Below are positions 11,424-62,986 of a stretch of 64,000 bases of DNA, piece after piece (within the stretch, counting starts at the first letter, position 1; each line of letters starts with the position of its first letter). Origin of the DNA: an uncultured Elusimicrobia bacterium (GTDB taxonomy: Bacteria; Elusimicrobiota; Elusimicrobia; UBA1565; UBA9628). The DNA lies in NCBI GenBank assembly GCA_903881545.1, contig CAIRTQ010000048.1, positions 25,914-89,913 of the forward strand, in the 5' to 3' direction. Under the pieces are notes generated by a model. The model saw nothing but the letters and a program-made list of their open reading frames with translations, was not told the DNA's origin and ran no database searches. The translations under genes were made by a program, and so were the position numbers.

Positions 11424-11426
11424 TCT

Positions 11427-13565: not shown

Positions 13566-13567
13566 GT

Positions 13568-16681: not shown

Positions 16682-16727
16682 ACCCCATTCCGCACTGCAA
16701 CCTCGCGCAGTCCGTGCGCGTTATTTC

Positions 16728-17699: not shown

Positions 17700-17976
17700 G
17701 CTTCTGGTATTGGTGGTCTATGACATCAGGTCGCCGAAGCGGCTGGCGCGGATGGGCAGGCGCATGAAGGATTTCGGGGTGCGCGTGCAGAACAGCGTTT
17801 TCGAGTGCCGTCTGGCGGTCTCCGAGTATCCGAGGCTGAAGGATGCGGCGCTGAAGATCGTGGACCCGCGGGTGGATTCCCTGCGGTTATACCGGATCTG
17901 CGCGGCCTGCGAAGAGAAGGTGGATTTCCTGGGCGCGGAGGTGCCGGGATTGCCTGACGATGTGCTTGTCCTGTGA
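17677..17976 (+). CDS. cas2: Cas2
   Basis: MPIAGKHELLVLVVYDIRSPKRLARMGRRMKDFGVRVQNSVFEC is the canonical Cas2 fold signature. Overlaps the end of cas1. Confidence 0.8.
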   Translation: MPIAGKHELLVLVVYDIRSPKRLARMGRRMKDFGVRVQNSVFECRLAVSEYPRLKDAALKIVDPRVDSLRLYRICAACEEKVDFLGAEVPGLPDDVLVL

Positions 17977-18200
17977 CCGCCAACTTGCCCGAGGTAGAAA
18001 GGGGGGGGTGGCTAGCGGTCTGGGTCTTGCGGGATTTCGGGAATGGAGTTATGCTTGTGCGGTCGGTGCAATTCTGCGGCGGCGTTGTTGGGATCGGTTG
18101 TCGGAGCAGGTTGGAGGTGGGATTGTCGGAATGGAATAGAGAGGGGTTAGCGGAATGGGGCCGAATTGGAGTGGGATTAGTAGAGGTATTTTGGGCTGCG
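17977..18200 (+). promoter_or_regulatory. Putative CRISPR leader
   Basis: Locally less GC-rich segment between cas2 and the first repeat, with reiterated GGAATGG-like short motifs. Confidence 0.45.
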
Positions 18201-19336: not shown

Positions 19337-19355
19337 AGCCCGGTCAGTTCCAGAG

Positions 19356-21140: not shown

Positions 21141-21142
21141 GC

Positions 21143-22114: not shown

Positions 22115-22246
22115 CCTCCTGAACGATAGGACATTTTACCAAGTTGCAGTCTGCCGCGTTCTGCGGATTTGCAGGGTGCGCGGAGGCTGGTAAAATGCTT
22201 TCATCGGGACAGGATGCCGGCCCAACTGACATAAAGGAGCAGACCC

Positions 22247-24709
22247 ATGCCTACCAACGCCATACGTGCCCGCCGGCCGGCCGAAGCCGTTGTTTCGTTC
22301 ATTCCTCTGGGCTCCGTCGGAGACATCGGCGCCGGCTGCCATTATCTGAAGTTCTCGGGCACCCCGCTCCTGCTTGACAGCGGCATGATGTCGGAATGCT
22401 CCGCGGGCTCCGGGCTTCCCGCCTACGACCGCGTCGGGGGCCTCGCCGATGTGGAGGCCATCGTCATCAGCCATGCCCATCACGACCATATAGGAAGCCT
22501 GCCCATCACGGCCCAGCGCTGTCCCAAGGCCAAAATCGTCATGACCGAGGCCACCCGGAAGATCGCCCTGCTCATGCTCGCCGATTCCGGCAGGCTCATG
22601 GCCAAGAGGGCGGCGGCCGACGATGGCGGCGGCAAGCCGCCGCATGCCGGGCTTTATCAGGAGGACGCCCTGCGCAAGCTGTTCGAGGAGAGGGTCGTGA
22701 CTGTCGCCTATAAGGCGCCCCTCGCCGTGGGGGGCCTGACCGTGAGGCTCTTCGACGCCGGGCATGTGCTCGGCTCGGCCATGGCGCTGGTCAGCGACGG
22801 CCAGGCGAGCGTGCTCTACACGGGCGACTTCTGCGACCAGCCGACCATCCTGCACCAGGGGGCTGATTTCGCCTCGGTGGGCAAGCCCGACATCGTCATC
22901 ACCGAATCCACCTATGGCTCCGACATGGGCCGGCACGACCGCGCCGAGACCGTGCGCAAGCTCGGCCAGGCCATCAGCGCCACCATCGCACGGGATGCCA
23001 TAGCCCTGATCCCCGCCTTCGCCCTCGGCCGGACCCAGGAGGTCCTGTCCGCTATCCTCGCCCTGCAGAAGAGGGTGAACCTGCCGGCCGATGTCCCCAT
23101 CTATCTTCGCGGCGGGATCAGCCGCAAGATAAACGATATTTACGAAGGTTGTGAGTGGCCGGAGTTCGATGCGGGGCATGGCCCGATCGGCACAGGCGCC
23201 GGCATCGTCATCGCCACGAGCGGCTTCCTGACGCCGGGCACGGCGTCGTTCGGGATAGCGTCGACCATCGCCCCGAATTCGGCCAACGCCATCATCTTCC
23301 CCAGCCTTTATTGCTCCAAGACGAGCTATTACAAGAATTTTATCGAGGCGCTGCAGCCTAAATGCCGGATGGAGGAGGTGGACTTCTCGGCGCATGCCAA
23401 GGGATCGGGCATCGTGGAGAATATCTCCGGCCTGAAGCCGCAGAGCGTCATCCTGGTGCATGGCGGTAATGCCCAGCGGGCCGCCCTCCAAAAGGCTTTC
23501 CAACAGCGCGGCATCACCGCCTTCTATCCCGCCTCGGCGGGCGATGAGATCCTGGCCGTCAAGAGCGGCGGAGCCTGGAGTGTGCAGTGGAGCGCGGACA
23601 TGGAAGCCGTCATCGTGACGGTCGGGACCTCGGCCCTGCGTTCCTTCGAAAAGAAGCACGGCGGCCGGGCGCCGGAATCCGTCGAGGAGCTCGCCGGGTT
23701 CGTCGCGGGGAGTCCCCGAAACTGCGCTGAGATGAACACCATCAGCCGGATGCCGCCCCAGGGCCCGCCGGCCAAACGCTTCTTCTATCTGCTCGCCTCG
23801 GCCGCGGCCAAGGACTCCGGCATGCTCTGCGCGCAGGCGTTGGCCCTGCACCTGCAGGATGCGGGCTTCCGCGTCAGTATCTCGCCCGTCGACGGGCTCG
23901 AGATGAACGCCCGCCGGTTCCGGGACAAAGGGCTGCCGAACCTGGTGGACGCGCTCATCTCGATCGCCCTGCGCCATCCCCGGGCGCGCATAGTGGCGAC
24001 CGGCGGCTTCAAGGCGACGACGGCCTTCGCCACCCTCGTGGGGGCCTGCCTCAATCTCGAGGTCCTTTATGTGCACGAGGACATGTCGTCGGACGACCCG
24101 CTGGTGCGGATGCCGGCTTTCCCGGCGGTCTTCGACTCGAACCTGGTGGCCTTCTACGCCAGCGCGATCGAGGCCGTGGTGAAACACACCGACCGTCAGC
24201 TCGCGGAGAAGCTCTGGCGCAAGCTGCCGCCTCAGCTCCAGTCGCTTTTCGACCGGGACCGAAACCTGGCTTTGTCTCCCATGGGTCGGGTGCTGTGGGC
24301 GGCGCATCGCCGCCTGCAGGCCGCGGCGCAGGCCGCCGCGGATCCGGGGCTGAAGGGCGCGGAGAAGTTCGGCTGGCCGAAGGAGGCCTGGGTGATGCCG
24401 GGGGTGTGGGAGCGCGGGGAGGATGGGACCTTGACGGTCCGCGACGCCTGCTTCGAGACTTTGCGCAACCGCCTGCGGAACCACTTCCTCGTGACGCATG
24501 TGCGGGTCTACCCGCCCGAAGAGGGAAAGCCTGCGGCCGAGGCCCCTCTGATCAAGCGCTTGAGCGTTAAGCGCAAGAAGATCGACTGCTATTTGCGCGC
24601 CGGGAAGTTATCCCAGAAGCTGAGCATCTTCGTCGAGCCTCCTTTCGAGCATGTGGTCGTGTCCTCTATCGGGGTTGACCTGGAGTGGAAGCCGCTGTCT
24701 GATCTGTAG
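22247..24709 (+). CDS. beta-CASP metallo-beta-lactamase (MBL) nuclease fused to a C-terminal CARF domain
   Basis: MBL motif ISHAHHDHIGSLP and a beta-CASP-type FSAHAKGSG. CARF motifs downstream: VIVTVGTSALRS and IVATGGFKATTAFATLVGACLNLEVLYVHED, which closely parallels the Csm6 CARF DLTSGTKAMS...VVYVDN. Confidence 0.6.
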   Translation: MPTNAIRARRPAEAVVSFIPLGSVGDIGAGCHYLKFSGTPLLLDSGMMSECSAGSGLPAYDRVGGLADVEAIVISHAHHDHIGSLPITAQRCPKAKIVMTEATRKIALLMLADSGRLMAKRAAADDGGGKPPHAGLYQEDALRKLFEERVVTVAYKAPLAVGGLTVRLFDAGHVLGSAMALVSDGQASVLYTGDFCDQPTILHQGADFASVGKPDIVITESTYGSDMGRHDRAETVRKLGQAISATIARDAIALIPAFALGRTQEVLSAILALQKRVNLPADVPIYLRGGISRKINDIYEGCEWPEFDAGHGPIGTGAGIVIATSGFLTPGTASFGIASTIAPNSANAIIFPSLYCSKTSYYKNFIEALQPKCRMEEVDFSAHAKGSGIVENISGLKPQSVILVHGGNAQRAALQKAFQQRGITAFYPASAGDEILAVKSGGAWSVQWSADMEAVIVTVGTSALRSFEKKHGGRAPESVEELAGFVAGSPRNCAEMNTISRMPPQGPPAKRFFYLLASAAAKDSGMLCAQALALHLQDAGFRVSISPVDGLEMNARRFRDKGLPNLVDALISIALRHPRARIVATGGFKATTAFATLVGACLNLEVLYVHEDMSSDDPLVRMPAFPAVFDSNLVAFYASAIEAVVKHTDRQLAEKLWRKLPPQLQSLFDRDRNLALSPMGRVLWAAHRRLQAAAQAAADPGLKGAEKFGWPKEAWVMPGVWERGEDGTLTVRDACFETLRNRLRNHFLVTHVRVYPPEEGKPAAEAPLIKRLSVKRKKIDCYLRAGKLSQKLSIFVEPPFEHVVVSSIGVDLEWKPLSDL

Positions 24710-24822: not shown

Positions 24823-25641
24823 TTATGGCACGGCGTGACACTGTTGAAACTGCTGATGAATGAGGTGTCGCAGGTTCTTATCCAGCGCATCGCCGATCTG
24901 CCTCCCCCAGGTACACCATTGAGCATTCCCAACTCCTTCTATGGGCCTTCGTGGATGCGGCAATACATTCCCTCCGTTGGGAAGTCGGATGGCTTCAGGA
25001 AGAAATCCATTATGCTTTTGCATTTGGGGCACATCGCCGTACGGAATAATCACTACGTTATCCGGGACGGATTGCGGTAAGACCCCGTCGTGCCCTACGC
25101 GCATCGCGACTGATTGGTTTATATACTCATCATAATCCATGTGGAATAACGCAGGGCCGCCGGCATCAATGTACGCACCGTTGGAATGGTTGGTAAGAGG
25201 GCATGGGAATAACTCCGCAAGCATTACTTCGCATGTTATAGCTGAGCGGCCCAAGAAGTCTCGCTGATAGAGCCTGCGAATCGCAGGCGGGGGGGGACTA
25301 TCCGGCTCGTAGCCTGCAATGCCAGCTAGAAGAACAATGAGCTTGTCCCAGGTGGGCTGGAGTGTCGGGAGGTGCGCCAGAACCTGGTTTTGAATTTTTT
25401 TGCAGGCCTCTTTAAATTCAGGCCCATCGGGATAATGGCGCAAATATTGCTCATGGAGTTCCCGGACATCTCCGCAGAAACCTGGTGCGGGATTCTCTGC
25501 ATTTTGGTGGCCTCGATATAATTGCGTCAGGACTTTAAGACGATAATTCACCTCTGCGGGAATCGTTACCCGTTCTTCCAATCCTAAAAGCCATATCCGC
25601 GCTTCTCGTCGTCCATAGCCGATGAAATGGTTTAGTGGCAC
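24823..25641 (-). CDS. Hypothetical protein (lower-GC segment)
   Basis: 272-aa ORF with a non-repetitive translation and no recognisable motifs. Confidence 0.3.
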   Translation of the reverse strand: MPLNHFIGYGRREARIWLLGLEERVTIPAEVNYRLKVLTQLYRGHQNAENPAPGFCGDVRELHEQYLRHYPDGPEFKEACKKIQNQVLAHLPTLQPTWDKLIVLLAGIAGYEPDSPPPPAIRRLYQRDFLGRSAITCEVMLAELFPCPLTNHSNGAYIDAGGPALFHMDYDEYINQSVAMRVGHDGVLPQSVPDNVVIIPYGDVPQMQKHNGFLPEAIRLPNGGNVLPHPRRPIEGVGNAQWCTWGRQIGDALDKNLRHLIHQQFQQCHAVP

Positions 25642-25658
25642 AATCCCTCCTCAAGGTT

Positions 25659-27779
25659 TTACGCCGCACTCCCCACCAGCTTAAACGCCGCCCAATGATA
25701 CGGATGCGGATGCGCGCGCATCACCGCCAACTGCGCCTGCCGTAACGCCTCCGCCTTCCGCTTCCCCTCGGCCAGATGCTTGTAGAACGCCGTCACCAGC
25801 CGTCGGGCCACCGCGTCCTCGATGTCCCACAAGGTCACCACCACCGACCGCGCCCCGGCCATCAAGAACGCCCGGTGCACGCTCTCCACCTCGTCGCAGC
25901 CCCGGTGCCGCCCCTGCGCCGTCTTGCAGCAGCTCAGAAACGCCAGGTCCAGCCCCGACAAAGGCAAGTCCAAAATCTCATTCACGCGGAGCAAGCCGTC
26001 ATCCCCATCGTGCTCCGCCAGGATCAGGTGCGAGCCCAAGGCGTCGTCCGGCGAAAACTCCCCGTGGCAGGCGATGTGCAGAAGGCCGCAATGCCGGCAA
26101 AGCGCCAAAGCCTTCTTGTTCGCCTCAGTCCCCACGAATACCTTCGCGCCCGGGAACACCTTGGCGATCTCCGCGGCCTCTTCCTCGGCGTGCGCCAGCC
26201 CGCCCGTAGGATTGGCCAAAGCCAGCAGGCCTTTCCGCGAAGGCCGCGGATGGCTTGAGGCCGCCAGCATGGACGCATGGGGCAGATAGCTCACCGGCAA
26301 GCGCTCCAGCAGCGGCTTGCCGTCAGCCAAAGGCAAGGCCGCGAAAGGCACATCGATGAGAGCGCCGCTCGGCACTACATGCAGACAGGAGGCGGCGTCA
26401 ATCTCATCAGCCACAGGCGCGATCAAGTCCTGCGCCAGGCGCTTCAAAGCCCAATTGCAGAATTGCAGGTTCTTGTCCGTCTGCGCTTGGCGCAGGAAGC
26501 CCTTGATCTGTCCGACCTTGGCGGTCAGGGCCTCCGGGGCCATTTCGATGCGGCGGGCGGCCAGGCCCTTATTGCTCACCGCGAAGATGGACAAGGCGTG
26601 GCGGCCCAGGTGATAGTCGAGAAGAAGTTCGCCTTCGGCAAGCCGGGCCGAAAGCTGTTTGGCTGTCAGAACGGCCTGCGGCTTGACCTTGGCATCGTCG
26701 CTGGTCCGCGAGCGCAACTGCTCGATGAAGACCCGCGCCTTGCAGCGTTGGGAAAGCTCGAGGCCCAGCTCCGGCCGGTCGAGCTGATGGGCCAGGCAGA
26801 TCCCCAGGTCGTAGATGCCGAGCTTGCCCTTCTGGTAGCCGATCCGGCTGTCGTCCGTGGAGTATGTCTCCCGGCCGGATTCCATGATAGCCACGGCCTT
26901 GAGGCATTCCTCAAGCGCGGGCTCAAGCTGGCCTCGGTCGCGCAAAATCTTGGCGAGATGGTAGTTCTCCCATTGGCTCGGGGTATCGTTCTCGGCGTTC
27001 ATTTCCATGGACTGGCGCAGGATCGCCTCGGCCCGGTCCAGGTAGCGCTTGGCGGCCTTTGGATCGGACTCGCGCAGGAATTTGCTCCAGGAGCGGCACA
27101 CCCGGGCTAGCTCGCGCAGGGCCTTGGCCATCGAGCCCTTGGACCTCTCGTCCTTTATCCGCTCAAAGGTATCCAGGGCTTTCTTGAGGTGCTCCTCCGC
27201 ATTGGAAAGGCTCACCTTGGTCTTGGGCCTGTGCCGAGCCCAGATGCGCCCGATCGACCGATAGAAGAGTGCCTCGTAGCGGGTCCATCTATCATCGGCG
27301 CCCCAGGTTTTTTCCAGGTGGCGGAAGACGCTGAGCCCGTTGCTGCAGGCGGCCATCTGCTCCTCTTCCGTGGCGCCGCTCTCGCCCATGGCGCGCCAGG
27401 CCTGCATCAGCCATTTGCAGTTCTCTTGATTGGTTCTGGGCAGGGGCTTGAGCCATTCGAGAGCCTTGAGGGCCGAATTCCGGGAAACACCCTCATGGTT
27501 GAGCGTGCCGCCGAGCATGGAATGCCCCACCCGGGCTTTGCCTGCTTCCAGCCCCATCTTCATCTCTTCAAAGATAGGGACGGCGGCCGCGAAGAGCTGA
27601 TAGGAGCTTTCCAGCCCCTCCGCGATCTCCCGCTCCTCCTTGTCGTTCAAGGCGAAGTACAACTTCCAGCCCGCGTTGTAGGCGGCCTTGGCGCTGGCCG
27701 CGGTGGGGGAACTGCTGCAATCTGCGATGAGCCGGTCCGACTGCCCTTTGTCGGGCGGTTCTTGAGGCATGGCGCTCAA
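25659..27779 (-). CDS. TPR-CHAT protease (Csx29-like architecture)
   Basis: N-terminal TPR-like helical repeats. The C-terminal CHAT dyad is LLHIACHGEFSPDD (His) and LAFLSCCKTAQG (Cys). Coupled to the upstream sigma gene (27776-27779 overlap). Confidence 0.65.
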   Translation of the reverse strand: MSAMPQEPPDKGQSDRLIADCSSSPTAASAKAAYNAGWKLYFALNDKEEREIAEGLESSYQLFAAAVPIFEEMKMGLEAGKARVGHSMLGGTLNHEGVSRNSALKALEWLKPLPRTNQENCKWLMQAWRAMGESGATEEEQMAACSNGLSVFRHLEKTWGADDRWTRYEALFYRSIGRIWARHRPKTKVSLSNAEEHLKKALDTFERIKDERSKGSMAKALRELARVCRSWSKFLRESDPKAAKRYLDRAEAILRQSMEMNAENDTPSQWENYHLAKILRDRGQLEPALEECLKAVAIMESGRETYSTDDSRIGYQKGKLGIYDLGICLAHQLDRPELGLELSQRCKARVFIEQLRSRTSDDAKVKPQAVLTAKQLSARLAEGELLLDYHLGRHALSIFAVSNKGLAARRIEMAPEALTAKVGQIKGFLRQAQTDKNLQFCNWALKRLAQDLIAPVADEIDAASCLHVVPSGALIDVPFAALPLADGKPLLERLPVSYLPHASMLAASSHPRPSRKGLLALANPTGGLAHAEEEAAEIAKVFPGAKVFVGTEANKKALALCRHCGLLHIACHGEFSPDDALGSHLILAEHDGDDGLLRVNEILDLPLSGLDLAFLSCCKTAQGRHRGCDEVESVHRAFLMAGARSVVVTLWDIEDAVARRLVTAFYKHLAEGKRKAEALRQAQLAVMRAHPHPYHWAAFKLVGSAA

Positions 27780-29167
27780 CCTTTTATTGCGTCGCGGCGC
27801 AGGCGCGCGTAATAGCGGTCGCGCTCCGCGCCGGAAAGCCCGCGGGTGGGGGAGCTCTGGCCCTGGGGCGGGGTGCGCATGGCCGCGGCGAGGACCGGCT
27901 CTGTGATGTCGAAGCGTTTCATCAGGCGCTTGAGGAGTCCGGCGGTCAGCAGGCCGGCAGGAGCGGTGTCCGAGAGGATGGCCATGCAGTCATCTTCCGT
28001 GATTCCCAGCCCCTTGGCCAAAGTCGCGGGGTCGCCATCCACGCGCGAGGTGATGAGCTCGCCCAAGGACTGCCGCTTCTCGCTGTCGCCGGAGAAGCCC
28101 AGGGCCACGGCCACGGCGCAGAGGTCGGCCAATTCCTGGGCGCCCGGCTCCACTGCGCCGGCGCGTGTCGCTGGAGCCATGTCCGGGTATTGGGCAAGGG
28201 CCTGCTCCACGCTCTGCCATAGCCAGTCGTCAAGCTTGGGGTCTTCGGCGGCGGGCAGGGCGGGCTTGGCCCGCTTGACCTTGGCCTTGGAAAGGGCGAT
28301 AAGGGCTTGGCGCAGGGTCGCGAGCGCCTGGCGGGGTTCTTGGCGCAGGCCTTCGGCCAGCTTCCCCACGTTGAGCGGCAACTGGCTGGCGAGCTTGAGG
28401 GCCTTCTTGTGCGCCGGGGCCTCCACCAGTTCGACATCGGAGTCCCGGAGGTCCATCCTGGACAGGACAAGCGCTTTTAGTTTGTCGAATCGGGCGTCCT
28501 TGTAATCGGGCAGGGCGCAGAACTTCTGGTGGATGGCAACGCAGGCCCTACGGAAGTGGCTCGCCAAGGTCGCGCGGGGCATTTCGAAGATGGCGCTGAG
28601 GACCTCGTCACTGTGCCCTAAAAAGACCCTGCCGACCCAGATCGCGGCCGCTGTCTCGTTGGCCAGACCGCGCTCGGCGCAAAGGATTGCGTTGAGCATG
28701 TCCATTTCCATGGCCACGCCCACCGGCTGGTCGCAGTAGGCCTGGGGCTCCGCTCTCCGGGAGCGGGGTCTTTCGCTCTGCTCCTCGTCCTCTTCGTCGA
28801 GGTCATACTCGTAGGGGAGCTTTTTGCGCTTCATCGTGTCGAGAAATGCATTCTTGGCAACGGAGAGGGCATAATTCTTGAAATTTTCCGGTTCGTACTG
28901 CTTCTTCTTGAGGGCGCGGGATATGTTGCCCAAGGTGACGCTGAGAATATCGCCGGGGTCTATGTAGGCAGGAACGCCGCTTACGCCGCCGGCCAGGCGG
29001 GAATCCCGTACCTTGGAACATATGAAGCCTTCGACGCAGGCTTGGGCCAGTTTGAGGATTTTGTTGAGCTGGTCTTCGTCAGGCTTCTTATAATAGAGGG
29101 CGATGAGCGCGTCGGCCTCTTTCCCAAAATCCGAATAGATGCTGTTCGCCATAGCTCTCCTGTTCAT
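27776..29167 (-). CDS. ECF/sigma-70-family factor with a ~230-aa C-terminal extension
   Basis: Region 2 is ENFKNYALSVAKNAFLDTMKRKKLP. Region 4 HTH is ETAAAIWVGRVFLGHSDEVLSAIFEMPRATLASHFRRA. A long extra C-terminal region follows. Confidence 0.55.
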   Translation of the reverse strand: MNRRAMANSIYSDFGKEADALIALYYKKPDEDQLNKILKLAQACVEGFICSKVRDSRLAGGVSGVPAYIDPGDILSVTLGNISRALKKKQYEPENFKNYALSVAKNAFLDTMKRKKLPYEYDLDEEDEEQSERPRSRRAEPQAYCDQPVGVAMEMDMLNAILCAERGLANETAAAIWVGRVFLGHSDEVLSAIFEMPRATLASHFRRACVAIHQKFCALPDYKDARFDKLKALVLSRMDLRDSDVELVEAPAHKKALKLASQLPLNVGKLAEGLRQEPRQALATLRQALIALSKAKVKRAKPALPAAEDPKLDDWLWQSVEQALAQYPDMAPATRAGAVEPGAQELADLCAVAVALGFSGDSEKRQSLGELITSRVDGDPATLAKGLGITEDDCMAILSDTAPAGLLTAGLLKRLMKRFDITEPVLAAAMRTPPQGQSSPTRGLSGAERDRYYARLRRDAIKG

Positions 29168-29249: not shown

Positions 29250-29438
29250 CTACGCACCTTCGGCTTTCTCCAGCGCCAGGGCTTGTTCCATCGCCAGCAG
29301 GGCAGCCTTGACCGCGGCATGCTTCTTCTTGCGTTGCGAAGGGGTCATCCGGTTCCAAAAATACTTGCCGCCAACCTCTAGCATGCACAGCCGTTTGATC
29401 CGAGCCTTCCTGGCTTGCGCCATTTCTCGCGGCTTCAT
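29250..29438 (-). CDS. Small basic hypothetical protein between the clpX-like and sigma genes
   Basis: 62-aa ORF, Lys/Arg-rich. Uncertain. Confidence 0.2.
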   Translation of the reverse strand: MKPREMAQARKARIKRLCMLEVGGKYFWNRMTPSQRKKKHAAVKAALLAMEQALALEKAEGA

Positions 29439-29441
29439 GGA

Positions 29442-30998
29442 TTATGCCTCGCTTAGCTTCGGCCCATCCTCGGCCTCCGGCTCAAACACCACCTCCTTAA
29501 GCCCCGCCCTCTCCGCCCCGCCGCACGCCTCGTCCCCGTTCTCGAACAAGATCGGCGCCAACCCCGCCTCCAGTATCCCCTTCAGGCCGCGCGCTCCCGT
29601 ATGGTTTTCCAACGCCCGCTCGGCCACCCACTCCAGCGTCGCCTGCGGCACCCGCAGGTCCATCCCGCTGGCCCCAAACAAAGCCCGGTACTGGCTCAGT
29701 AGATTATTCCGCGGCTCGGTCATGATGTGGACCAAGTCCTCCTTGGTCAAAGCGTCCAACGCCACCACGCTGGCGAAGCGCCCCACGAACTCAGGCGCGA
29801 AACCGTAGGCCACAAGGTCATCCGTGGTCGCCTGCGCCAGGCAACTGCCGCCTGCATCCGCCTGCTGGCTATGGCCCGCGGAAAAGCCAATCTGCCGATT
29901 CTTCTGCCTCGCCTGGATGAGCTCCTCCATCCCAGCAAAGGCCCCGCCGGCGATGAAGAGGATATTGCCCACGTTGTAAGTCGCGCCCTGATGGGTCACC
30001 GTGTCGCCCTCCAGCAGCTTCAGCAGTTCCTCCTGCACGCACCGCCCGCTGACGTCCCTGTTGCTGTTGTGCGCCCCAATGGCCTCCCTCGACGCGATTT
30101 TGTCCACCTCGTCTATGTAGATGATTCCGGTCTCCGTGCGCTTAAGGTCGTTGCCCGCGGCCTTGTATAGGGCGACCACCATCTCCTCCACGCTCCCTCC
30201 CACATAGCCCGTCTCCGTGTACTGCGTGGCGTCGCAGATCACCATAGGGACGTTCATGACCTTCGCCAAGGTCCGGCACAGGTGCGTCTTGCCCGTGCCC
30301 GTCGGCCCCAGGAGCAGGATGTTCGCCTTATGCAGTTTGTCCATGCCCTTGCGTGTCTTGTTCAGCTTGACCGTCTGCAGGTGCTTGAATACCGCCGTGG
30401 CGATCGCCCGCTTGGCGCGGTCCTGGCCCACCACATACGCGCAGAGCTTCTGATGGAGCGACCGGGGGGAACACTTGGCCGGCGGCCGGCCGGCCCGCTT
30501 GGGCTTCTTGCCCACCACGCGGTCGAGGACCGCAGGCTCGACCGTGAATTGTTCCGGCGCCCCGGAGGACTGGAACCTGTATGCAAAGCCGGGTACGACG
30601 AGCTTCTTCTTGATGAGCTTGGCGTCGCTCTGCCAGTACTTCATCAGCGCGATCTTTCCCAGATGGCTTGGGGCGCTGACCAGCTTCCGGATCACCGGAA
30701 TCCTGTTGAGCTCGCCTTCAGCGCAGACCGCCGCGTAAACGAGAATCCACAGCATCTGCACCTCGACATCGTCGAGCCTGTTCTTGCGGGCCAGCTTCTC
30801 AAGGGGAATGTCTACTCCGTCGAGCAGTGAAGCTTTGGCCTTGGCCCTGATCTCGCGATACATGGGAAAAAGGCCATTCTCGGCCGGGCTTTCGGAATCC
30901 TCCCGTCCAGGCCTGGACCGGGTCTGCTCGCGCAGGAGTTCGACGAACGCGAAGCAGTCGTTGAGATACTGCGTATTATCGGCGTAGCATTGATCCAT
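29442..30998 (-). CDS. ClpX-like AAA+ unfoldase with a non-canonical N-terminal domain (no zinc-binding domain)
   Basis: Walker A LLGPTGTGKTHL. Also TGYVGGSVEEMV, Walker B IIYIDEVDKIASR, GGAFAGMEELI and LDALTKEDLVHIMTEPRNNLLSQYRALF, all ClpX hallmarks. The first ~190 aa lack the C4 zinc-ribbon. Confidence 0.7.
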   Translation of the reverse strand: MDQCYADNTQYLNDCFAFVELLREQTRSRPGREDSESPAENGLFPMYREIRAKAKASLLDGVDIPLEKLARKNRLDDVEVQMLWILVYAAVCAEGELNRIPVIRKLVSAPSHLGKIALMKYWQSDAKLIKKKLVVPGFAYRFQSSGAPEQFTVEPAVLDRVVGKKPKRAGRPPAKCSPRSLHQKLCAYVVGQDRAKRAIATAVFKHLQTVKLNKTRKGMDKLHKANILLLGPTGTGKTHLCRTLAKVMNVPMVICDATQYTETGYVGGSVEEMVVALYKAAGNDLKRTETGIIYIDEVDKIASREAIGAHNSNRDVSGRCVQEELLKLLEGDTVTHQGATYNVGNILFIAGGAFAGMEELIQARQKNRQIGFSAGHSQQADAGGSCLAQATTDDLVAYGFAPEFVGRFASVVALDALTKEDLVHIMTEPRNNLLSQYRALFGASGMDLRVPQATLEWVAERALENHTGARGLKGILEAGLAPILFENGDEACGGAERAGLKEVVFEPEAEDGPKLSEA

Positions 30999-31278: not shown

Positions 31279-31372
31279 GGATTTTAACCGGACAGGAGGG
31301 TTTCGGCCTGGGATTTGGGGGAGCCTTAGGATTTTAACCGGACAGGAGGGTTTGCCTGGGTTTTTGGGGAGC
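31279..31372. repeat. Tandem direct repeat (~48-bp unit, 2 copies) upstream of the HNH gene
   Basis: GGATTTTAACCGGACAGGAGGGTTT...GGGATTTGGGGGAGCC occurs twice in tandem, with minor differences between the copies. Confidence 0.55.
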
Positions 31373-31450
31373 CTCGCGCCCTGCACGATGCTTTTGAGGC
31401 GAAGGCGCAGGATAGGGGGAACTATTCTCGGGGTCATTCGTATATTCAGC

Positions 31451-32662
31451 ATGGACCTCGCCCGGATTTCTGATGAGGCGCTGATGGGCAAGGTGGAGGC
31501 GCTGGCCGAGACCGAACGCTTCAGCTTGATCGACTTCCTCATCCATCTGGGTGAACTCGACCTGCGCACCGCCTGCCAGAACAGGGGCTATGCGTCGGTC
31601 TTTGCCTACCTCACCCGCCACCTGGGCTATTCAGAAAGCGACGCCGTAAGGCGCATCCGAGTCGCCCGCGCGGCGCGGAAGTACCCGTCGGTACTGCGCA
31701 TGCTTGCCAGCGGCGACCTGCACCTGGTCGGCGTGGCCATGCTCGAGCCGATCCTCACCTCCGACAACCATGAGCGGCTGTTGCGTCAGGCCTCACGCCG
31801 GAGCACGCGGGAGGTGGAGCGCCTTGTCGCCGGGCTGGCTCCCGCCGCAGTCGAACCGCGCGACCGCATCCGGCCCCTTCCCGCGTCTTGCGCAAGCGGC
31901 GCCGGCCGGCCTTCGGGAGATGCCGCGCCGCTCGGCATGGAACCATCGCCCTTGCCAAGCGCCGGACTTGCGCTACCGGTTGACCTTGTCCTTGCCGCCG
32001 GACCCGCCTCGTCTTGCACCCCGGCTGCCCCCGTCATTGCCGCCGGACCCGTTACGCCTTGCGCGCCGGCAAGCCCGGCAAGGGATCGCGTGGTGTTCAC
32101 CTTTGCCGCGGGCGAGCAGGTACAAAGTTGGTTCGAGGAGGCCCGCGACCTGCTCCGGCACCGCTTCCCCATGGGCCGCATGGAAGATGTGATCGGCGAA
32201 GCCCTCAGGCGGCTGGTGGAGGCCGAGCGCCGCGCCTTCCTCGCACTGCCGTCAGCGAAGCCCCTGCGCCCGCCGTCAACTCAGCACCGCGGTCCTTCTT
32301 CTCCGGAGCGCAGCGGACCTGCGCCCGTGCCGGCTGCAGGCTCCTCGCCTGAGAGCCGCTATGTCCCGCGGCGGGTCAAAGACGAGGTTTGGCGCCGGGA
32401 CTCTGGCCGGTGCGCTTATGTCAGCGCGGACGGGGTCCGCTGCGGCGAGACGGCTTGGCTGGAATGGGACCATGTCGTGCCGCGGGCCATGGGCGGAGCC
32501 TCGAACGACCCGGCGAACATCCGCCTGCTCTGCCGGGCGCACAATCAGTCAGAAGCGCGGCGGATCTTCGGCGATGCCAAGTGTTCGGGCCGCAAGACCG
32601 CGGCTGATGCAACGGCGGTCAAGAAAGGTGTTCCCGTGCCGAGCTCCGGAGCGCCTGCATGA
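31451..32662 (+). CDS. DUF222 (13E12-repeat type) HNH endonuclease
   Basis: N-terminal DUF222-like (ALMGKVEALAETERFSLIDFLIHLGELDLR). C-terminal HNH (CAYVSADGVRCGETAWLEWDHVVPRAMGG...NIRLLCRAHNQ). Confidence 0.6.
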   Translation: MDLARISDEALMGKVEALAETERFSLIDFLIHLGELDLRTACQNRGYASVFAYLTRHLGYSESDAVRRIRVARAARKYPSVLRMLASGDLHLVGVAMLEPILTSDNHERLLRQASRRSTREVERLVAGLAPAAVEPRDRIRPLPASCASGAGRPSGDAAPLGMEPSPLPSAGLALPVDLVLAAGPASSCTPAAPVIAAGPVTPCAPASPARDRVVFTFAAGEQVQSWFEEARDLLRHRFPMGRMEDVIGEALRRLVEAERRAFLALPSAKPLRPPSTQHRGPSSPERSGPAPVPAAGSSPESRYVPRRVKDEVWRRDSGRCAYVSADGVRCGETAWLEWDHVVPRAMGGASNDPANIRLLCRAHNQSEARRIFGDAKCSGRKTAADATAVKKGVPVPSSGAPA

Positions 32663-32664
32663 CG

Positions 32665-33753
32665 TCACGCATGCGCGCATCCTTCCGGCTTGCGCAAATC
32701 TATTGCGCGTCCCCACGGCATGTCCGCCTCCGAGGTCAGGCACCAGAGCACCGGATATCCCTTGGGGGCGGATTTCGGGAAGGTCCCGCAGCCGTCGGTC
32801 AGGTAGAGCAGAACATCGGGCCGCAGGCGATTCTTGGCCACCTGGTCGAATACCGGTTGGAAATCCGTCCCGCCGCCTCCTTTGAACTTCAGCTTCTTGA
32901 GAAAATCAGCCAGCCCGTCCGCCCGGACCGCTTCATGGACCTTGGCGTCGCAGGTCATGACGGTCAGCGTCTCGCAGAACGCGGATATGGCTTTGAGCTC
33001 GGCGGCGAAGGTTTCGAGCATATCTTTCGAGATCGAGCCCGAGGTGTCCACGGCGACCACCAGCCGGCCTTTCTGCCCGGCAGCCGGCCCCGGCAGGTAC
33101 TGCTCCTGCCACACGCGCCTGCGGTTTGGCGGCAGGTAGGACTGCTCCTCCTTGCCTAATGACTCCCGCAGGTAGCGCCGCAGAAGCCTCTGCCAGGGCA
33201 CCTGGCTGCGGCGCAGTCCCTTGACCAGCCGGGCGATGCCCGCCGGCAGTCTGCCGCGGCCCGAGCAGGCGGCGGCCGCGGCCAGGACCCGGCCTATCAT
33301 CTCGCCCGACATCTCCTCGCGCAGGGGCAGATGCTCGTCCAGGCATTTCAGGATGATGGCCGGCGATTGCAGCTCGTAGATCTGTTCCGCGGTCATACCG
33401 TCGTACTTCCGGTCCAGCAATACCCCTTCAGGCAGATCGAGGCGCATGTCGCGCAGCTCTTGGTTGACCGCGAAATCACAGGCCGCGTTCCATCTGAAAT
33501 GCTCCCGGCCCGCGCGCCGGGAAGGGTGGCAGTGCAGGTAGGCGATGTGCAGAAGCTCGTGCATGAGCACACCGGCGGTCTCCTCGTTGGTGAGCTTGTC
33601 CAGGAACGCCTTGTTGTAGAAGATGCGCTCGCCGTCGGTGGCCATGGTTGCAAGGCTGGGCTCCTCCGAAACCCCGGCCATGGCCAGTAAGGTGCCGAAA
33701 AAGGGCTGGTCCATGGCCAGGCGGGTCAATGCCCGCTCAAGCTTATCTGACAT
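32665..33753 (-). CDS. VWA-domain protein with an N-terminal HExxH putative metallopeptidase domain (DUF2201-like, MoxR partner)
   Basis: HELLHIAYLH (HExxH). VWA MIDAS-like VVAVDTSGSISKDM. Overlaps the MoxR gene end. Confidence 0.6.
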   Translation of the reverse strand: MSDKLERALTRLAMDQPFFGTLLAMAGVSEEPSLATMATDGERIFYNKAFLDKLTNEETAGVLMHELLHIAYLHCHPSRRAGREHFRWNAACDFAVNQELRDMRLDLPEGVLLDRKYDGMTAEQIYELQSPAIILKCLDEHLPLREEMSGEMIGRVLAAAAACSGRGRLPAGIARLVKGLRRSQVPWQRLLRRYLRESLGKEEQSYLPPNRRRVWQEQYLPGPAAGQKGRLVVAVDTSGSISKDMLETFAAELKAISAFCETLTVMTCDAKVHEAVRADGLADFLKKLKFKGGGGTDFQPVFDQVAKNRLRPDVLLYLTDGCGTFPKSAPKGYPVLWCLTSEADMPWGRAIDLRKPEGCAHA

Positions 33754-34738
33754 AAGCCATCACCATCTTGGACGCCATGTTGCGCAGGGCCGGGTGCGCC
33801 GCCAGCCGGGAGACCAGCTTGGGCGGCAGGCTCTTGAACATCAGCACGCGCAGTTCCGGGGTCACTGCTTCCAGCAGGCTTCCCAGATGCGGGACAGCCC
33901 CATCTTCGATGTCGTGGCGGGATATGTGCGAAGCCACGGCCAGAACCACCGCGTAGCGCACGCTCGCATCGTTCGGGGGCAAGGCGGGCAGCTTGCCCGC
34001 CAGTATCTCCTTGACCTCGATGGCGCGGTAGATCCGGCACCAGCCCGAGAACTCGGAGGCCGCGCCCTGGCCCACGGCCGAGGCCACGAGCTTGACCTTC
34101 TCCGTTGCGGGCTCCTGGCCCGAGTAAAGGCGCGAGGCCGCGGCCCAGGAGCGGGGGGTGGGGAAAGCGGGCTCGCCCGTGTTCTTGCAGAGCAGTTCCG
34201 GCCGGAAGCGCAGGAATGAGACCATGTCGCCGTTGACTCCATTCTCCTTGGCCCAGGCCGCCCAGGTGTCCAGGTCCGGCTCCACCTCCACATGGAGCAT
34301 GCGGTTGGCCAGGGCCGAGCCCAGGGCCGAGGAGAGGGCGTCGTCTTCCTCGCGGTTGCCCGCTGCCACCACGCGCCAGCCGGGAGGCAGGACATAATCG
34401 CCCACGCGGCGGTCCAGGACCAGCTGGAGCGCCGCGTTCTTGACCAACGAGGGGGCCTTGTCTATCTCATCGAGGAACAGGACTCCCTTGCCCTCGCGGG
34501 GCAGAAAGGCGGGGGGATACCAGACCAGCTCCTTGGCGCCGTGGTCAGGCACGGGCAGGCCGCGCAGGTCGGTGGCGTCGAGCTGGGCCAGGCGCAGGTC
34601 GCGGACCGGAAGCTTGCGCTTGGCCGCGGTCTCGGCCACGAGGGAGCTCTTGCCAACGCCGGGTGGGCCCCAGAGCATCAGCGGGATGTCGAGGGTCAGT
34701 GATTTTTCGAGGATGAGCCTGGCTTCGTTGAGGTTCAT
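33743..34738 (-). CDS. MoxR-family AAA+ ATPase
   Basis: LMLWGPPGVGKSSLV (Walker A), VLFLDEIDKAPS (Walker B) and the AAA_5-type VLPPGWRVVAAGNREEDD. Start taken at the internal Met (MNLNEARL) of the longer ORF. Confidence 0.75.
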   Translation of the reverse strand: MNLNEARLILEKSLTLDIPLMLWGPPGVGKSSLVAETAAKRKLPVRDLRLAQLDATDLRGLPVPDHGAKELVWYPPAFLPREGKGVLFLDEIDKAPSLVKNAALQLVLDRRVGDYVLPPGWRVVAAGNREEDDALSSALGSALANRMLHVEVEPDLDTWAAWAKENGVNGDMVSFLRFRPELLCKNTGEPAFPTPRSWAAASRLYSGQEPATEKVKLVASAVGQGAASEFSGWCRIYRAIEVKEILAGKLPALPPNDASVRYAVVLAVASHISRHDIEDGAVPHLGSLLEAVTPELRVLMFKSLPPKLVSRLAAHPALRNMASKMVMAYVR

Positions 34739-35211
34739 GGTTTGCCTCTGAAGTGCTTGCGAAAGTCGGTGAATAGGCCTGGGTGACTGCAAATGCAGAT
34801 CGGCTCTCGGCCGGTCTTTGCCAGCAGCAGAATAGGCATGGTCAAGAGGTGGGCTTTGCGCGGGGCGAGCAGGATGGCGATGACATGCTTGCACAGGCTG
34901 CCTCCGCCGGATGAGACTTCGACCTTCCGGGCGCCGTCCGGGCAGGTGCAGTGATGGCCGTTCTTCCCGCTTAGGTCTATGGAAACATGATAGGGTTCGT
35001 CGCCGCCGCGGACCATGTAGGACGCCTCGGCCTTGCCGGCCGCGAGCCGTTCGAAATTGTATCTCCTGCGCACCTTTTTGGCCCGAGCCAGGCGGAGGCG
35101 GAATCCCAAAGGATCGAAGGGGACGGTCTCGGTCCATTCTTTTGGGACGACGGGGCGTTTTCTTTTCATGTCCTTTTCAAGCTGCCAATGCGGATAAGAG
35201 CAAAGCCGCAT
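34735..35211 (-). CDS. SWIM zinc-finger protein
   Basis: HHCTCPDG...CKHVIAILLA is a CxC...CxH SWIM signature. Confidence 0.5.
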   Translation of the reverse strand: MRLCSYPHWQLEKDMKRKRPVVPKEWTETVPFDPLGFRLRLARAKKVRRRYNFERLAAGKAEASYMVRGGDEPYHVSIDLSGKNGHHCTCPDGARKVEVSSGGGSLCKHVIAILLAPRKAHLLTMPILLLAKTGREPICICSHPGLFTDFRKHFRGKP

Positions 35212-35482
35212 GGCCTTCCTGCAAGGCGGCGACCACCAGATGCCGGCAGATGACGGGGCCCTTGTTCATCCGCCGGACCAGCCCTCCCCAGGCCCAATCC
35301 CGGCAGGTGCAGTAGTGCCGGCCCTGGCCCGAGATGTCGAGGTACACATAGCAGGTCCGGCCGTTGTGGCGGGCGCGCAGGACGATCTCCGAGGCCTTGC
35401 GTTCGATCTCATCGAGGCGGACCTCGTCGCGGCTCTTGCGGGAGAACCACCCCGCGATGGACTTCCGCGGCATGGCGATCAT
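35177..35482 (-). CDS. SWIM zinc-finger protein (paralogue)
   Basis: HYCTCRDW...CRHLVVAAL is a SWIM signature. Overlaps both neighbours. Confidence 0.5.
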   Translation of the reverse strand: MIAMPRKSIAGWFSRKSRDEVRLDEIERKASEIVLRARHNGRTCYVYLDISGQGRHYCTCRDWAWGGLVRRMNKGPVICRHLVVAALQEGHAALLLSALAA

Positions 35483-36807
35483 GACCCGGCCTCGATCCCT
35501 TTCGGAAGGTCCTTCTTTCCGTTGCCGTTGCTGGCTCCGTTGCCGGCGCCGTTGCCGCTGGGGACCGCGAAGCCGACCGAGGCCAGGGGCTTGAGGGCGC
35601 CGTCCGCCTTGAAGTTCGTGTCGAGCTGGGACCTGAGCTTGGCGACGCTGTCTGTAAGGTCCGTGTCGCGCGACGGCCGGCCTTCGTTGACGCCGTGCAG
35701 AAGGGCCGCGACCGCGGTTTCCTGGACATAGGCCATGGAGAACCCGTGGCTGTCCCGCGCGGCGCGGCGCAGGGCCGCCTCGCCGAAGCGGCCGAGCCCC
35801 TTCTTGCGCAGGAGGCGCAGGCGCTCGTCCTCGCCGGGCAGGCCGAAATGCCAGACCTTGTCGAATCGGCTGGGCCGGTTGAGCAGGGCGGGGTCGAGCT
35901 TTTCCGGGGCGTTGGTCGTGGCGATGACGATGAGCCCGTCCGGCGCGGTGATGCCGTCGAGCAGGTTCAGGAGGTAGGACAGAGAGACCTTCGTGCCGTC
36001 TTGCAGGCGGTCGAGGTCTTCCAGGATGAGGATGGCTGGCCCTTCCTCGGACGGCATGCGGAAGGCGCGCGCCAGGGTGGCGTCGTCGATGTCGCTCTTG
36101 AGCGGCAGGAGGAATATGCCGACCTTGGTGTTGGCGGCGATGATCTTGGCGGTCAAGGTCTTGCCGCAGCCGGGAGGGCCGGAGAACAGGAATCCGCGGC
36201 GGAAGGGAAGGTTGAGTTCCTTGTAGAGCGGCTTGGCTTTGAGGAAGCTGCGTACGCTGTCGCGGATCTCCTCGATGCGGCCGGTAGGCAGGACCACGTC
36301 GTCCCAGCCGAGCTTGGGCCGCGGGATGGGGCCCTCCTGGAAGATGTAGATGCAGGAGGTCCTGGAGTTGAAGCGGCGCTCGAATGCCTTGAGCTCGCGC
36401 CAGAGGTCTTCGAGAGCGTCGCGGTCCTTGATGGCGATCAGCGTGCTTGGTTCCTCCCCGAAGCGCATCACCAGGGAGAACCTCTGATAATGGACGGGGG
36501 TATTCTTCCAGACGAAATCAATCTCGCCGACCCAGGTCTCCTCGTCTATCCCCGCGCCGCGGCGGTGCAGGGGGGGAGTGAGCAGGCTCTGGCGCCGTCC
36601 GGACTTCCCGGAGTCCCAGTCGATGCTGGGAGAGACTTCTTCGCGGACGACGGCGCCCGGCGCATGGGAGCGCAGGAAGGCGGGCAGGAGCGCGTGGCTC
36701 ACGCTCGACGCATGGGGTGCGATGCGGTAGGTCAGCCAGCCGTCCGACAAGGGGTGCTTGCGCCGGAACTCGGCCAGCTTTTCATCGATGAAGTGTGAAT
36801 CGCTCAT
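35479..36807 (-). CDS. Classic-clade AAA ATPase with an N-terminal domain
   Basis: LFSGPPGCGKTLTAK (Walker A), ILILEDLDRL (Walker B), ATTNAPEKLDPALLNRPSRFDKV (second region of homology). Gly/Asn-rich C-tail. Confidence 0.7.
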   Translation of the reverse strand: MSDSHFIDEKLAEFRRKHPLSDGWLTYRIAPHASSVSHALLPAFLRSHAPGAVVREEVSPSIDWDSGKSGRRQSLLTPPLHRRGAGIDEETWVGEIDFVWKNTPVHYQRFSLVMRFGEEPSTLIAIKDRDALEDLWRELKAFERRFNSRTSCIYIFQEGPIPRPKLGWDDVVLPTGRIEEIRDSVRSFLKAKPLYKELNLPFRRGFLFSGPPGCGKTLTAKIIAANTKVGIFLLPLKSDIDDATLARAFRMPSEEGPAILILEDLDRLQDGTKVSLSYLLNLLDGITAPDGLIVIATTNAPEKLDPALLNRPSRFDKVWHFGLPGEDERLRLLRKKGLGRFGEAALRRAARDSHGFSMAYVQETAVAALLHGVNEGRPSRDTDLTDSVAKLRSQLDTNFKADGALKPLASVGFAVPSGNGAGNGASNGNGKKDLPKGIEAGS

Positions 36808-36870: not shown

Positions 36871-38127
36871 CTAGGCCGAAAAGCCGATGGACTGCGGGCT
36901 GCCGACAGCGGCGCTGCCGCTGGAAGCCTCCTTGATCTGGACTTTGAGCTGGGCCACGGCCGTGTCCAGATGCGCGTCAACGGCCTTGACCTTGGCGTGC
37001 AGGGCCGCGAGCATGGCGCTGGTAAGGGCTTCCTGGACATAGGCCATGGAGAAGCCCTGGGAGGCCTTGGCGGCGCGTTCGACGGCGGCGTCGGAAAAGC
37101 CGGCCCGGTTCTTGAGCTTGAGCAGGGCGAGGCGCTCGGCGAAGCCGGGGAGCTTGAACTCCCAGACCCGGTCGAAGCGGCTGGGCCGGTGCAGGAGCGC
37201 GGGGTCGAGCCGCCCCGGGTTGTTGGTGGTGGCGATGACGATGATGCCTTCCGGACAGCTGAGGCCGTCGAGTGTGTTGAGCAGGTAGGCCAGGGACACC
37301 TGCCTGCTGTCCACCATCTTGTCGAGGTCTTCGAGCAGGAGCACGCAGGGCGCGTTGTGCACGGCCGTCGAAAAGGCCTGGTCCATGGTCCTTTCGTCGA
37401 GGTTGCTCTTGATGAGCAGGGTGACCATGTTGACGCGGTATTCGGACGCGATGACCTTGCTCACCAAGGTCTTGCCGTTGCCGGGGGGGCCGATGAAGAG
37501 GAAGCCGCGGCGGTAGGGCAAGCCCATCTCTTTGTACGCCGGGCGCGCTTTGAGGAAGGCTTCGAAGTTGTCGCGGATCTGGGCTTTCATGCCGTCGGGC
37601 AGGACCACGTCCGTCCAGCGCTGCTTCGGCCTGGGCAGGTCCGGCCCGTTGATCACGTTGATCTTCCTGATGAAGGTGTGCCGGCGTTGTTTACAGAAAC
37701 GCAGCCCTTCTTTCCAGAATGACTCCAGGGCGGCCAGGTCCGTGGTCGCGATGAAAGTGAGCTCATGGGCGGTGGGGCCTTCCCTGGGAGCCCACAGCCG
37801 GCGCAAATGGATGCGGGCGCCGCGCCATTTGAGGCTGATGTCGCCTTGCCAGTCGTACTCGATGGCGCCCTTGCCGCGGAGCATGCGGGGGAGGTAGGTC
37901 AGGCGTTCCCGGACATGGCCCTGGTCGTAGAAGATATGAGTGACGATGGCCTCATCGAAGTCCGCGGGCTTGAGCGCGGAGCGCAGGAAGGCCGGAGCCT
38001 TCGGTATGAAGGACATGTAAGAGTTCGCGCAGAGATGGACATGCCAGCCGTCCTCGGCCGGATGCCGGGCGCGGAACCGGGAGCGTTCGTCCTTTATGAA
38101 TTCGTGAAGGGTCATGGGTGCCTCCAC
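36871..38127 (-). CDS. Classic-clade AAA ATPase (paralogue of 35479-36807)
   Basis: LFIGPPGNGKTLVSK, LLLEDLDKM, ATTNNPGRLDPALLHRPSRFDRV. N-terminal domain similar to the paralogue. Confidence 0.7.
   Translation of the reverse strand: MEAPMTLHEFIKDERSRFRARHPAEDGWHVHLCANSYMSFIPKAPAFLRSALKPADFDEAIVTHIFYDQGHVRERLTYLPRMLRGKGAIEYDWQGDISLKWRGARIHLRRLWAPREGPTAHELTFIATTDLAALESFWKEGLRFCKQRRHTFIRKINVINGPDLPRPKQRWTDVVLPDGMKAQIRDNFEAFLKARPAYKEMGLPYRRGFLFIGPPGNGKTLVSKVIASEYRVNMVTLLIKSNLDERTMDQAFSTAVHNAPCVLLLEDLDKMVDSRQVSLAYLLNTLDGLSCPEGIIVIATTNNPGRLDPALLHRPSRFDRVWEFKLPGFAERLALLKLKNRAGFSDAAVERAAKASQGFSMAYVQEALTSAMLAALHAKVKAVDAHLDTAVAQLKVQIKEASSGSAAVGSPQSIGFSA

Positions 38128-58640: not shown

Positions 58641-58644
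<4 letters not shown>
57553..58644 (-). CDS. Class V aminotransferase (serine-pyruvate/alanine-glyoxylate type)
   Basis: LLTPGPTPLPPQV N-terminus and the PLP-lysine motif TGSQKGLMCAPG. Confidence 0.75.
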
Positions 58645-61063
<2,419 letters not shown>

Positions 61064-61067
<4 letters not shown>

Positions 61068-61666: not shown

Positions 61667-61679
61667 AACCGCAACGGGG

Positions 61680-62951: not shown

Positions 62952-62986
62952 GTTACCTCCTGAAGGTATCGCCATTTGCGGCGGAT

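Follow-up and report, generated by a model that had tools for sequence, protein, structure and literature searches.

ClpX is usually seen as a single housekeeping unfoldase which obtains its specificity from a zinc-ribbon domain, RKH loops and adaptors. Its RKH loop is needed for C-terminal degrons of the ssrA and RseA type. HslU carries an I-domain insertion and has no IGF loop. In the present study a ClpX-like AAA+ unfoldase gene was investigated, which is located at positions 29442-30998 (minus strand) of a 64,000-nucleotide stretch of DNA from an uncultured Elusimicrobia bacterium (GenBank assembly GCA_903881545.1, contig CAIRTQ010000048.1, positions 25,914-89,913). This whole stretch is called the window in the following, all window coordinates refer to it, and the gene and its product are called ClpXL. 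An initial annotation, made from the DNA letters alone, had described ClpXL as a paralogue of ClpX, specialised by the exchange of its N-terminal domain and located away from the clpP locus. This description was borne out. On balance it is probable that ClpXL is an accessory unfoldase, carried by a genomic island, which docks on the host ClpP and picks its targets via a winged-helix domain. Two further proposals of the initial annotation, that ClpXL is dedicated to a neighbouring protease/sigma module or that it is the only ClpX of the cell, were not supported.

A ClpX-type motor with an exchanged N-terminal domain

ClpXL is encoded by an intact open reading frame (ORF) of 518 aa with a GGAGG Shine-Dalgarno sequence 5 nt ahead of the ATG; the G+C content of the window is about 65%. 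The large and small subdomains of a ClpX-type AAA+ module occupy residues 176-488 (29535-30473, minus strand). With the NCBIfam ClpX model NF003745, 336.4 bits (2.3e-100) were obtained for residues 174-488, and 298.4 bits with TIGR00382. Neither the cut-off of the former model (359) nor the equivalog cut-off of the latter (370.75) was reached. PF07724/ClpX was the best motor model, and a match to PF00004 was present but weak. Compared to solved ClpX chains of the PDB, ClpXL showed about 45% identity across the AAA+ module (E=1e-73). An AlphaFold2 (AF2) model with a mean predicted local distance difference test score (pLDDT) of 82 could be superposed on chains of the ClpX hexamer with template modelling (TM) scores of up to 0.88 (Foldseek).

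The ATPase hallmarks of ClpX, which the initial annotation had stated to be present, were confirmed, each encoded on the minus strand. Walker A (GPTGTGKT, residues 231-238, 30285-30308) is invariant across the ClpXL family, and the pore-1 loop GYVG (residues 264-267, 30198-30209) is conserved there within the family-specific motif DATQYTETGYVG. Walker B was present as well (IIYIDE, residues 292-297, 30108-30125), RDVSG was found at residues 314-318 and the sensor-2 motif GAR at residues 468-470. The IGF tripeptide (residues 370-372, 29883-29891) is aligned with the ClpP-docking IGF/LGF loop of canonical ClpX and stands opposite LGF of a solved ClpX chain. In 22 family members at only 35-57% identity, G371 and F372 were invariant. 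The RKH loop is deleted in ClpXL, where no residues are aligned with GGRKHPHQEF of a solved ClpX chain, and none of the family members has RKH in these alignment columns. Judged by its sequence and fold, ClpXL is a real ClpX-type protein unfoldase.

The N-terminal domain (N-domain; residues 1-175, 30474-30998, minus strand) consists of a helical bundle and a winged-helix-like fold, assigned to PF22977, and replaces the C4 zinc ribbon of ClpX. Neither a PF06689 match nor a CxxC...CxxC pattern was found in ClpXL, whose cysteines are at positions 4, 15, 92 and 176 only. The earlier statement that the first 190 residues or so lack the C4 zinc domain is therefore right as to the missing zinc ribbon, whereas the N-domain comprises about 175 residues. 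The peptide DDVEVQMLWILVYAAVCAEGE quoted at that time corresponds to residues 75-95. PF22977 ('Winged helix domain, variant'; 'WHD') was matched by residues 4-91 of the isolated N-domain with 36.4 bits (gathering score 27), the match covering the first half of the model only. Structure prediction, which had been proposed for this domain, resulted in a winged-helix fold: in the confident AF2 model of the isolated N-domain (pLDDT 86), a bundle of helices precedes a helix-turn-helix that has a beta hairpin.

In a word-indexed protein search with the N-domain alone no matches were obtained. Relatives were found instead by an exhaustive search of its profile against 1.84 billion cluster representatives (E<=1e-3). 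It resulted in 447 representatives, namely ClpX-like proteins of about 500-540 aa and other proteins of 370-1000 aa. Ten proteins were sampled from the latter group; PF22977 was present in all ten and one or two PF00004 AAA domains in nine, and one of the sampled proteins (P0166) was Cdc48-like. The N-domain is thus not unique, as had been supposed, since many of its relatives are fused to classical AAA ATPases. As the PF22977 module also serves as N-domain in the classical AAA+ clade, the zinc ribbon was replaced by a module of another AAA+ clade. The N-termini of the two classical AAA+ ATPases encoded in the window showed no similarity to the ClpXL N-domain.

A family distinct from canonical ClpX

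A search with full-length ClpXL resulted in about 40 proteins of about 500-545 aa with 35-57% identity, which were aligned over more than 85% of ClpXL including the N-domain. They originate from Elusimicrobia, one Wildermuthbacteria metagenome-assembled genome (MAG) and many metagenomic contigs, and are annotated by their sources as 'AAA family ATPase' or, wrongly, as 'ClpX'. Canonical ClpX ranked after this family and was aligned to residues 178-486 only. The derived characters common to the family are DATQYTETGYVG, an HNS insertion before RDVSG, the lack of RKH and the invariant G371/F372. Of the canonical ClpX matches listed, none contained QYTE, and the zinc ribbon was present in 77 of 79. 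A phylogeny against housekeeping ClpX had been suggested by the initial annotation. It was calculated by neighbour-joining on the AAA module alone, and the family was separated from canonical ClpX in 100 of 100 bootstraps.

In IMG/VR, nothing was found with the family motif TQYTETGYVG. All matches of the family alignment in this database started at query residues 155-188; none included the N-domain and none was a full-length member. Full-length members were not detected among the PLSDB plasmids either. A scan of a genome collection with the full-length family alignment (patterns: Walker A and SVQQELLK) led to canonical clpX loci only. No description of the family was found in the literature on PF22977, ClpX paralogues, Elusimicrobia ClpX, and ClpX-like proteins in connection with CRISPR/CHAT or anti-phage functions.

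Above 57% identity, only relatives at 81% and at least 90% were identified, and at least two of these belong to ENA accessions next to that which holds the ClpP of the window. Outside the source project no relative exceeded 57%. For Lon of the window, more than 10 orthologues at 72-83% identity were found in MAGs of Elusimicrobiota, and all named Lon matches among 120 listed (61-83% identity) belong to Elusimicrobia. Thus, ClpXL is patchy where Lon is widespread in Elusimicrobiota, which is the pattern of an accessory gene. The ClpXL family is a sparsely distributed accessory lineage, horizontally distributed and ClpX-derived, which is distinct from canonical ClpX.

Genomic context of the family

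The genomic context was surveyed in 17 lineages besides that of the window, dereplicated at 85% identity. Homologues of window genes were searched with tblastn at 1e-5 and phmmer at 0.01. Homologues of the two classical AAA+ ATPases of the window, AAA_b (35479-36807, minus strand, PF00004) and AAA_a (36871-38127, minus strand), were located beside family members in five of the 17 lineages, co-oriented and 0-96 bp from the ClpX-like gene. A regulator of the winged helix-turn-helix (wHTH)-WYL-WCX type lies directly upstream of the ClpX-like gene in five lineages, co-oriented at a distance of 19-146 bp, and further off in two more. Four lineages have a metallo-beta-lactamase of about 440 aa with 31-49% identity to the protein encoded at 38279-39607 of the window. 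A DUF2779 gene, which we take to encode a nuclease, is found near the ClpX-like gene in four lineages as well. Other genes around family members include AbiE, Fic, DUF3800, PD-(D/E)xK nucleases, SbcCD-like pairs, a DnaE-like polymerase and helicases. Such surroundings are characteristic of defence islands or of mobile DNA. One WYL regulator of the CapW/BrxR type is reported to sense single-stranded DNA (PMC11662680).

Furthermore, single loci differ in their arrangement. At one locus (L106, 280-4872) two ClpX-like genes of 552 and 518 aa stand in tandem, followed 28 bp on by an AAA ATPase of the partner type. Another locus (L099, 1457-5535) has the order WYL regulator, ClpX-like gene and DNA polymerase III alpha-like gene, which may indicate a link to DNA damage in some lineages.

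Proximity to type III cas genes was observed in one of the 17 lineages (L094/L103), the only other family locus near CRISPR-Cas. There an AbiE pair separates the ClpX-like gene from type III-B cmr genes at a distance of 2 kb. This member with 35% identity (L103, 35-8651; also L094) stands beside a toxin-antitoxin pair of the AbiEii type and Cas6, Cmr2/Cas10 and Cmr3.

The ClpXL locus in the window

Upstream of ClpXL, two exact copies of CCCTCCTGTCCGGTTAAAATCC, 22-bp direct repeats 50 bp apart, were found in the intergenic region towards an HNH-like gene (31279-31350, minus strand). By chance, 0 matches of such a pair are expected. It may be a candidate operator, replacing the WYL-controlled promoter of other family loci. 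The HNH-like gene itself is divergent and encodes 436 aa with a weak C-terminal HNH match (31352-32662, plus strand); its position is kept in close relatives only. The genes that follow are on the minus strand. They encode, according to a profile match, a DUF2201 metallopeptidase-like and VWA-like protein (32665-33753), also kept in close relatives, and a MoxR-type AAA_5 ATPase (33743-35137). The latter comprises 331 aa in a relative and probably starts further downstream than listed. Two SWIM zinc-finger ORFs (34735-35211 and 35177-35482) are located between the AAA pair and ClpXL. Beyond AAA_b and AAA_a, a beta-CASP-like metallo-beta-lactamase nuclease of 442 aa is encoded (38279-39607, plus strand, Lactamase_B_2), which matched PDB entry 2az4 with 6.5e-21; matches to CPSF73, RNase J and Apollo were obtained too. 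Because the homologues of the AAA+ and beta-CASP partners lie at 35.5-39.6 kb, ClpXL belongs to the block from 29.4 to 39.6 kb. Two close contigs, with ClpX-like proteins at 81% and at least 90% identity, show the order AAA, two small SWIM ORFs, AAA_5, DUF2201, a gene on the opposite strand and ClpXL.

On the other side, a basic ORF of 62 aa starts 3 nt past the ClpXL stop (29250-29438, minus strand). It was also called in the relative with at least 90% identity. The small ORFs downstream of ClpXL, including this one, are not conserved between distant family loci. A module follows (24823-29167, minus strand) which is not conserved with the family. Its first gene encodes a sigma-like protein of 463 aa (27776-29167) with a weak match to region 2 of extracytoplasmic function (ECF) sigma factors only. 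This gene probably starts at the second ATG (M6), giving 458 aa, which is also its called length in a close relative. The TPR-CHAT gene (25659-27779) overlaps the upstream sigma-like gene by 4 nt, and its product reached 43 bits on the Csx29 model (cut-off 300), a weak resemblance. The third gene of the module encodes 272 aa (24823-25641). Among solved structures, no sequence relatives of the sigma-like and TPR-CHAT proteins were found.

Further genes of the island belong to a type III CRISPR-Cas locus (6137-19263). It encodes a Cas10-like protein of 476 aa with a palm2 match only, AGDD instead of GGDD and no HD region, multi-RAMP fusions (9337-10959 and 11427-13565) and Cas1 (16479-17699), and includes an array of 37-nt repeats GTCGGAAAGAAGTGACTCCCTGATAAGGGATTGAGAC (about 18200-19263). 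At 19257-22114, a fusion of protein-isoaspartate O-methyltransferase (PCMT) and CHAT protease of 627 aa is convergent with a gene of 323 aa with a weak ECF-sigma match. These form a second CHAT/sigma-like pair in the island, and the CHAT domain of the fusion is 33% identical to that of TPR-CHAT. A protein of 820 aa (22247-24709, plus strand) combines a beta-CASP metallo-beta-lactamase nuclease with a CARF-type Cas_APE2256 domain, and its nuclease half reached 150 bits on the type VII Cas14 MBL-CASP model (cut-off 800). The ORF of 787 aa that runs opposite to it (22136-24499) is probably not a real gene.

Proposed function of ClpXL

As an accessory unfoldase, a ClpXL hexamer would dock through its IGF loops on the host ClpP (61064-61666), the presumed proteolytic partner. 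It would unfold or degrade a small set of targets which are chosen by the winged-helix domain and not by degrons of the ssrA type, and it would act within a cassette triggered by stress or invaders. Several observations weigh against this. Docking on ClpP is deduced from a single conserved loop, and clpP adjoins no family member. None of the partner genes is present in eight of the 17 lineages, though several of those contigs are shorter than 3 kb. With PADLOC-DB 2.0 no known defence system was matched; ClpXL gave weak generic P-loop matches (DolB 2.8e-6, IetA 4e-5), and the AAA pair matched IetA with 1e-15 to 2e-19, with no IetS partner. In the window there is no WYL gene, and the AAA pair and the beta-CASP gene lie 4.5-7 kb from ClpXL with MoxR, VWA, SWIM and HNH genes between. 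The distance of the partners and the missing WYL gene thus indicate a rearrangement of the cassette in the window. Finally, ClpXL is contiguous with the ORF of 62 aa and the sigma-like, TPR-CHAT and 272-aa genes; all are co-oriented with short gaps, no terminator was detected, and co-transcription and local functional coupling of ClpXL with the sigma/CHAT genes are conceivable.

A more far-reaching interpretation is that the WYL, ClpX-like, AAA and beta-CASP genes constitute an undescribed anti-invader or DNA-damage system which hijacks the host ClpP by means of a dedicated adaptor-motor derived from ClpX. In the window it would in addition be wired to the TPR-CHAT/sigma cascade of type III CRISPR as its finishing protease. 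This is offered tentatively, as we consider it rather unlikely.

The main rival explanation is a remodelling ATPase that acts independently of ClpP. The winged helix would bind DNA or nucleoprotein, and the protein would act with the AAA+, beta-CASP and DUF2779 proteins, without proteolysis, when DNA is damaged or invader DNA is processed. The nature of the partners speaks for it, namely a beta-CASP nuclease, DUF2779 and wHTH-WYL-WCX regulators, the CapW type of which is reported to sense single-stranded DNA (PMC11662680). The DnaE-like polymerase downstream in one lineage, SbcCD-like genes in others and the lack of a clpP linked to the family agree with it as well. The invariance of G371/F372 down to 35% identity argues for selection on docking, and we regard a function without ClpP as unlikely.

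According to another explanation, which takes up the proposal of an unfoldase dedicated to the protease/sigma module, ClpXL is a finishing enzyme. TPR-CHAT would cut the sigma-like protein or an inhibitor, ClpXL-ClpP would degrade the fragment, and active sigma would be freed. Besides the contiguous, co-oriented genes, the relative with at least 90% identity keeps the order ClpXL, 62-aa ORF and 458-aa gene, and type III-B cmr genes are found near one further member of the family. Precedents are known: ClpXP acts in this way in the RseA/sigmaE system, and the same is proposed for CalpT/CalpS. The anti-sigma factor CalpT, when cleaved by CalpL, exposes a degron of the ClpXP type (bioRxiv 10.1101/2024.05.08.593097). 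However, homologues of the sigma-like 463-aa, TPR-CHAT, 272-aa, PCMT-CHAT, CARF-beta-CASP, HNH-like and DUF2201 proteins were detected in none of the 17 other lineages, and the conserved partners of ClpXL are different genes. The contig with the ClpXL of at least 90% identity is the only one outside the window with sigma-like adjacency. As it belongs, like the contig at 81%, to the same lineage as the window, it gives no independent support for the link. ClpXL is without the RKH loop, and a promoter-like TTGACT-17-TAAATT (29198-29170) ahead of the sigma-like gene, a consensus match only, suggests that this gene is in a separate transcription unit. We therefore judge a dedicated finishing unfoldase to be very unlikely. 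The initial annotation had named a lack of genomic linkage to CRISPR or CHAT genes in relatives as one part of what would refute it; CHAT in none and type III cas in one of the 17 lineages speak against its interpretation. Where ClpXL stands beside the type III CRISPR-linked sigma-like and TPR-CHAT genes, defence modules are juxtaposed in a way peculiar to this lineage, and this is not the conserved context of the family.

The clpX-less tig-clpP-lon cluster

The window contains the housekeeping cluster tig-clpP-lon (58641-63026, minus strand; tig 61680-63026, clpP 61064-61666, lon 58641-61067). As recognised before, clpX is missing from it, and the clpP stop overlaps the lon start by 4 nt (ATGA). 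The distance between ClpXL and clpP is 30 kb. In the 64-kb window no second ClpX-like sequence was found, hence no canonical clpX there or beside clpP. In canonical loci from other phyla, clpP was directly upstream of clpX in 52 of 80 cases. A relative with a Lon of 66% identity (GCA_001799675.1 and a JGI contig) has the order tig-clpP-lon-aminotransferase with the same 4-nt overlap of clpP and lon; neither clpX in the cluster nor a ClpX-like gene within 10 kb was detected. As this relative has the same gap with no ClpX-like gene nearby, the clpX-less cluster is clade-wide and unconnected to the acquisition of ClpXL. It is an old (ancestral) trait of the clade.

In the Elusimicrobiota assembly GCA_003509925.1 (L109/L110, 8715-12433), with a Lon of 79% identity, tig is directly joined to lon with a 4-nt overlap. 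As clpP is absent from this site, the Clp genes must have undergone more than one rearrangement in the clade.

That ClpXL is the only ClpX of the cell, a housekeeping gene relocated and remodelled, would agree with the clpX gap in the window and with one family member from an Elusimicrobia MAG annotated 'ClpX' by its source, but it is highly improbable, because the family is separate from canonical ClpX in every bootstrap replicate, the zinc ribbon and the RKH loop needed for canonical substrate classes are lost, identities fall from 81% and at least 90% directly to 57% while Lon has its orthologues at 72-83%, the gap is ancestral with one relative having tig-lon only, and ClpXL is located in an accessory island, with CRISPR-linked genes on one side and multi-ATPase genes on the other.

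Comparison with known systems

The ClpXL family keeps the motor and the IGF docking loop of ClpX and exchanges its specificity devices for a winged-helix module common to other AAA+ proteins. If ClpXL engages ClpP, mobile cassettes would redirect the central protease of the host with a ClpX of their own. Proteolysis would then be controlled by a new route in defence or stress responses, and the family would be a testable case of N-domain swapping in AAA+ proteins. With regard to CRISPR the outcome is largely negative, as ClpXL is not a conserved CRISPR/CHAT accessory.

Canonical ClpX, e.g. of E. coli, has Walker A and B, the GYVG pore-1 loop, the arginine-finger region RDVSG, sensor-2 and the IGF loop in common with ClpXL, at about 45% identity and TM scores of at most 0.88. 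In contrast, ClpXL is without the C4 zinc ribbon and RKH, scores below both equivalog cut-offs and belongs to a separate clade. Canonical ClpX is a housekeeping protein, inherited vertically and usually encoded beside clpP, whereas ClpXL is patchy, located in an accessory island and not beside clpP. HslU belongs to the same AAA+ clade and was the second-best NCBIfam match with 177 bits, but it missed the cut-off of 362 by a wide margin, with the alignment split in three pieces. The AAA+ proteins with PF22977 are uncharacterised, Cdc48/FtsH-like and of single- or double-ring type. They have the N-terminal helical/winged-helix module in common with ClpXL; their motor is the classical PF00004, whereas that of ClpXL is of the ClpX/HslU clade (PF07724) with an IGF loop.

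The ClpXP steps of RseA/sigmaE and of CalpL-CalpT-CalpS resemble the local logic of the window, with a site-specific protease, a sigma-like protein and an unfoldase of the ClpX type. However, these systems use the housekeeping ClpX and have none in the locus, and the link of ClpXL is not conserved past one lineage. With regard to the Craspase module of Csx29 (TPR-CHAT), Csx30 and RpoE, none of the 17 lineages had TPR-CHAT and a sigma-like gene together with its ClpX-like gene. Compared to the accessory genes of type III CRISPR-Cas, the ClpXL family is without recurrent linkage to cas10/RAMP or CARF/SAVED genes, with cmr nearby in one of 17. Defence operons regulated by WYL proteins of the BrxR/CapW type are similar in that a wHTH-WYL-WCX regulator precedes the ClpX-like gene by 19-146 bp in five family lineages. 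They differ in that the window has a 22-bp direct repeat upstream instead of a WYL gene, that no PADLOC system was matched and that an anti-phage role of the ClpXL family is only predicted.

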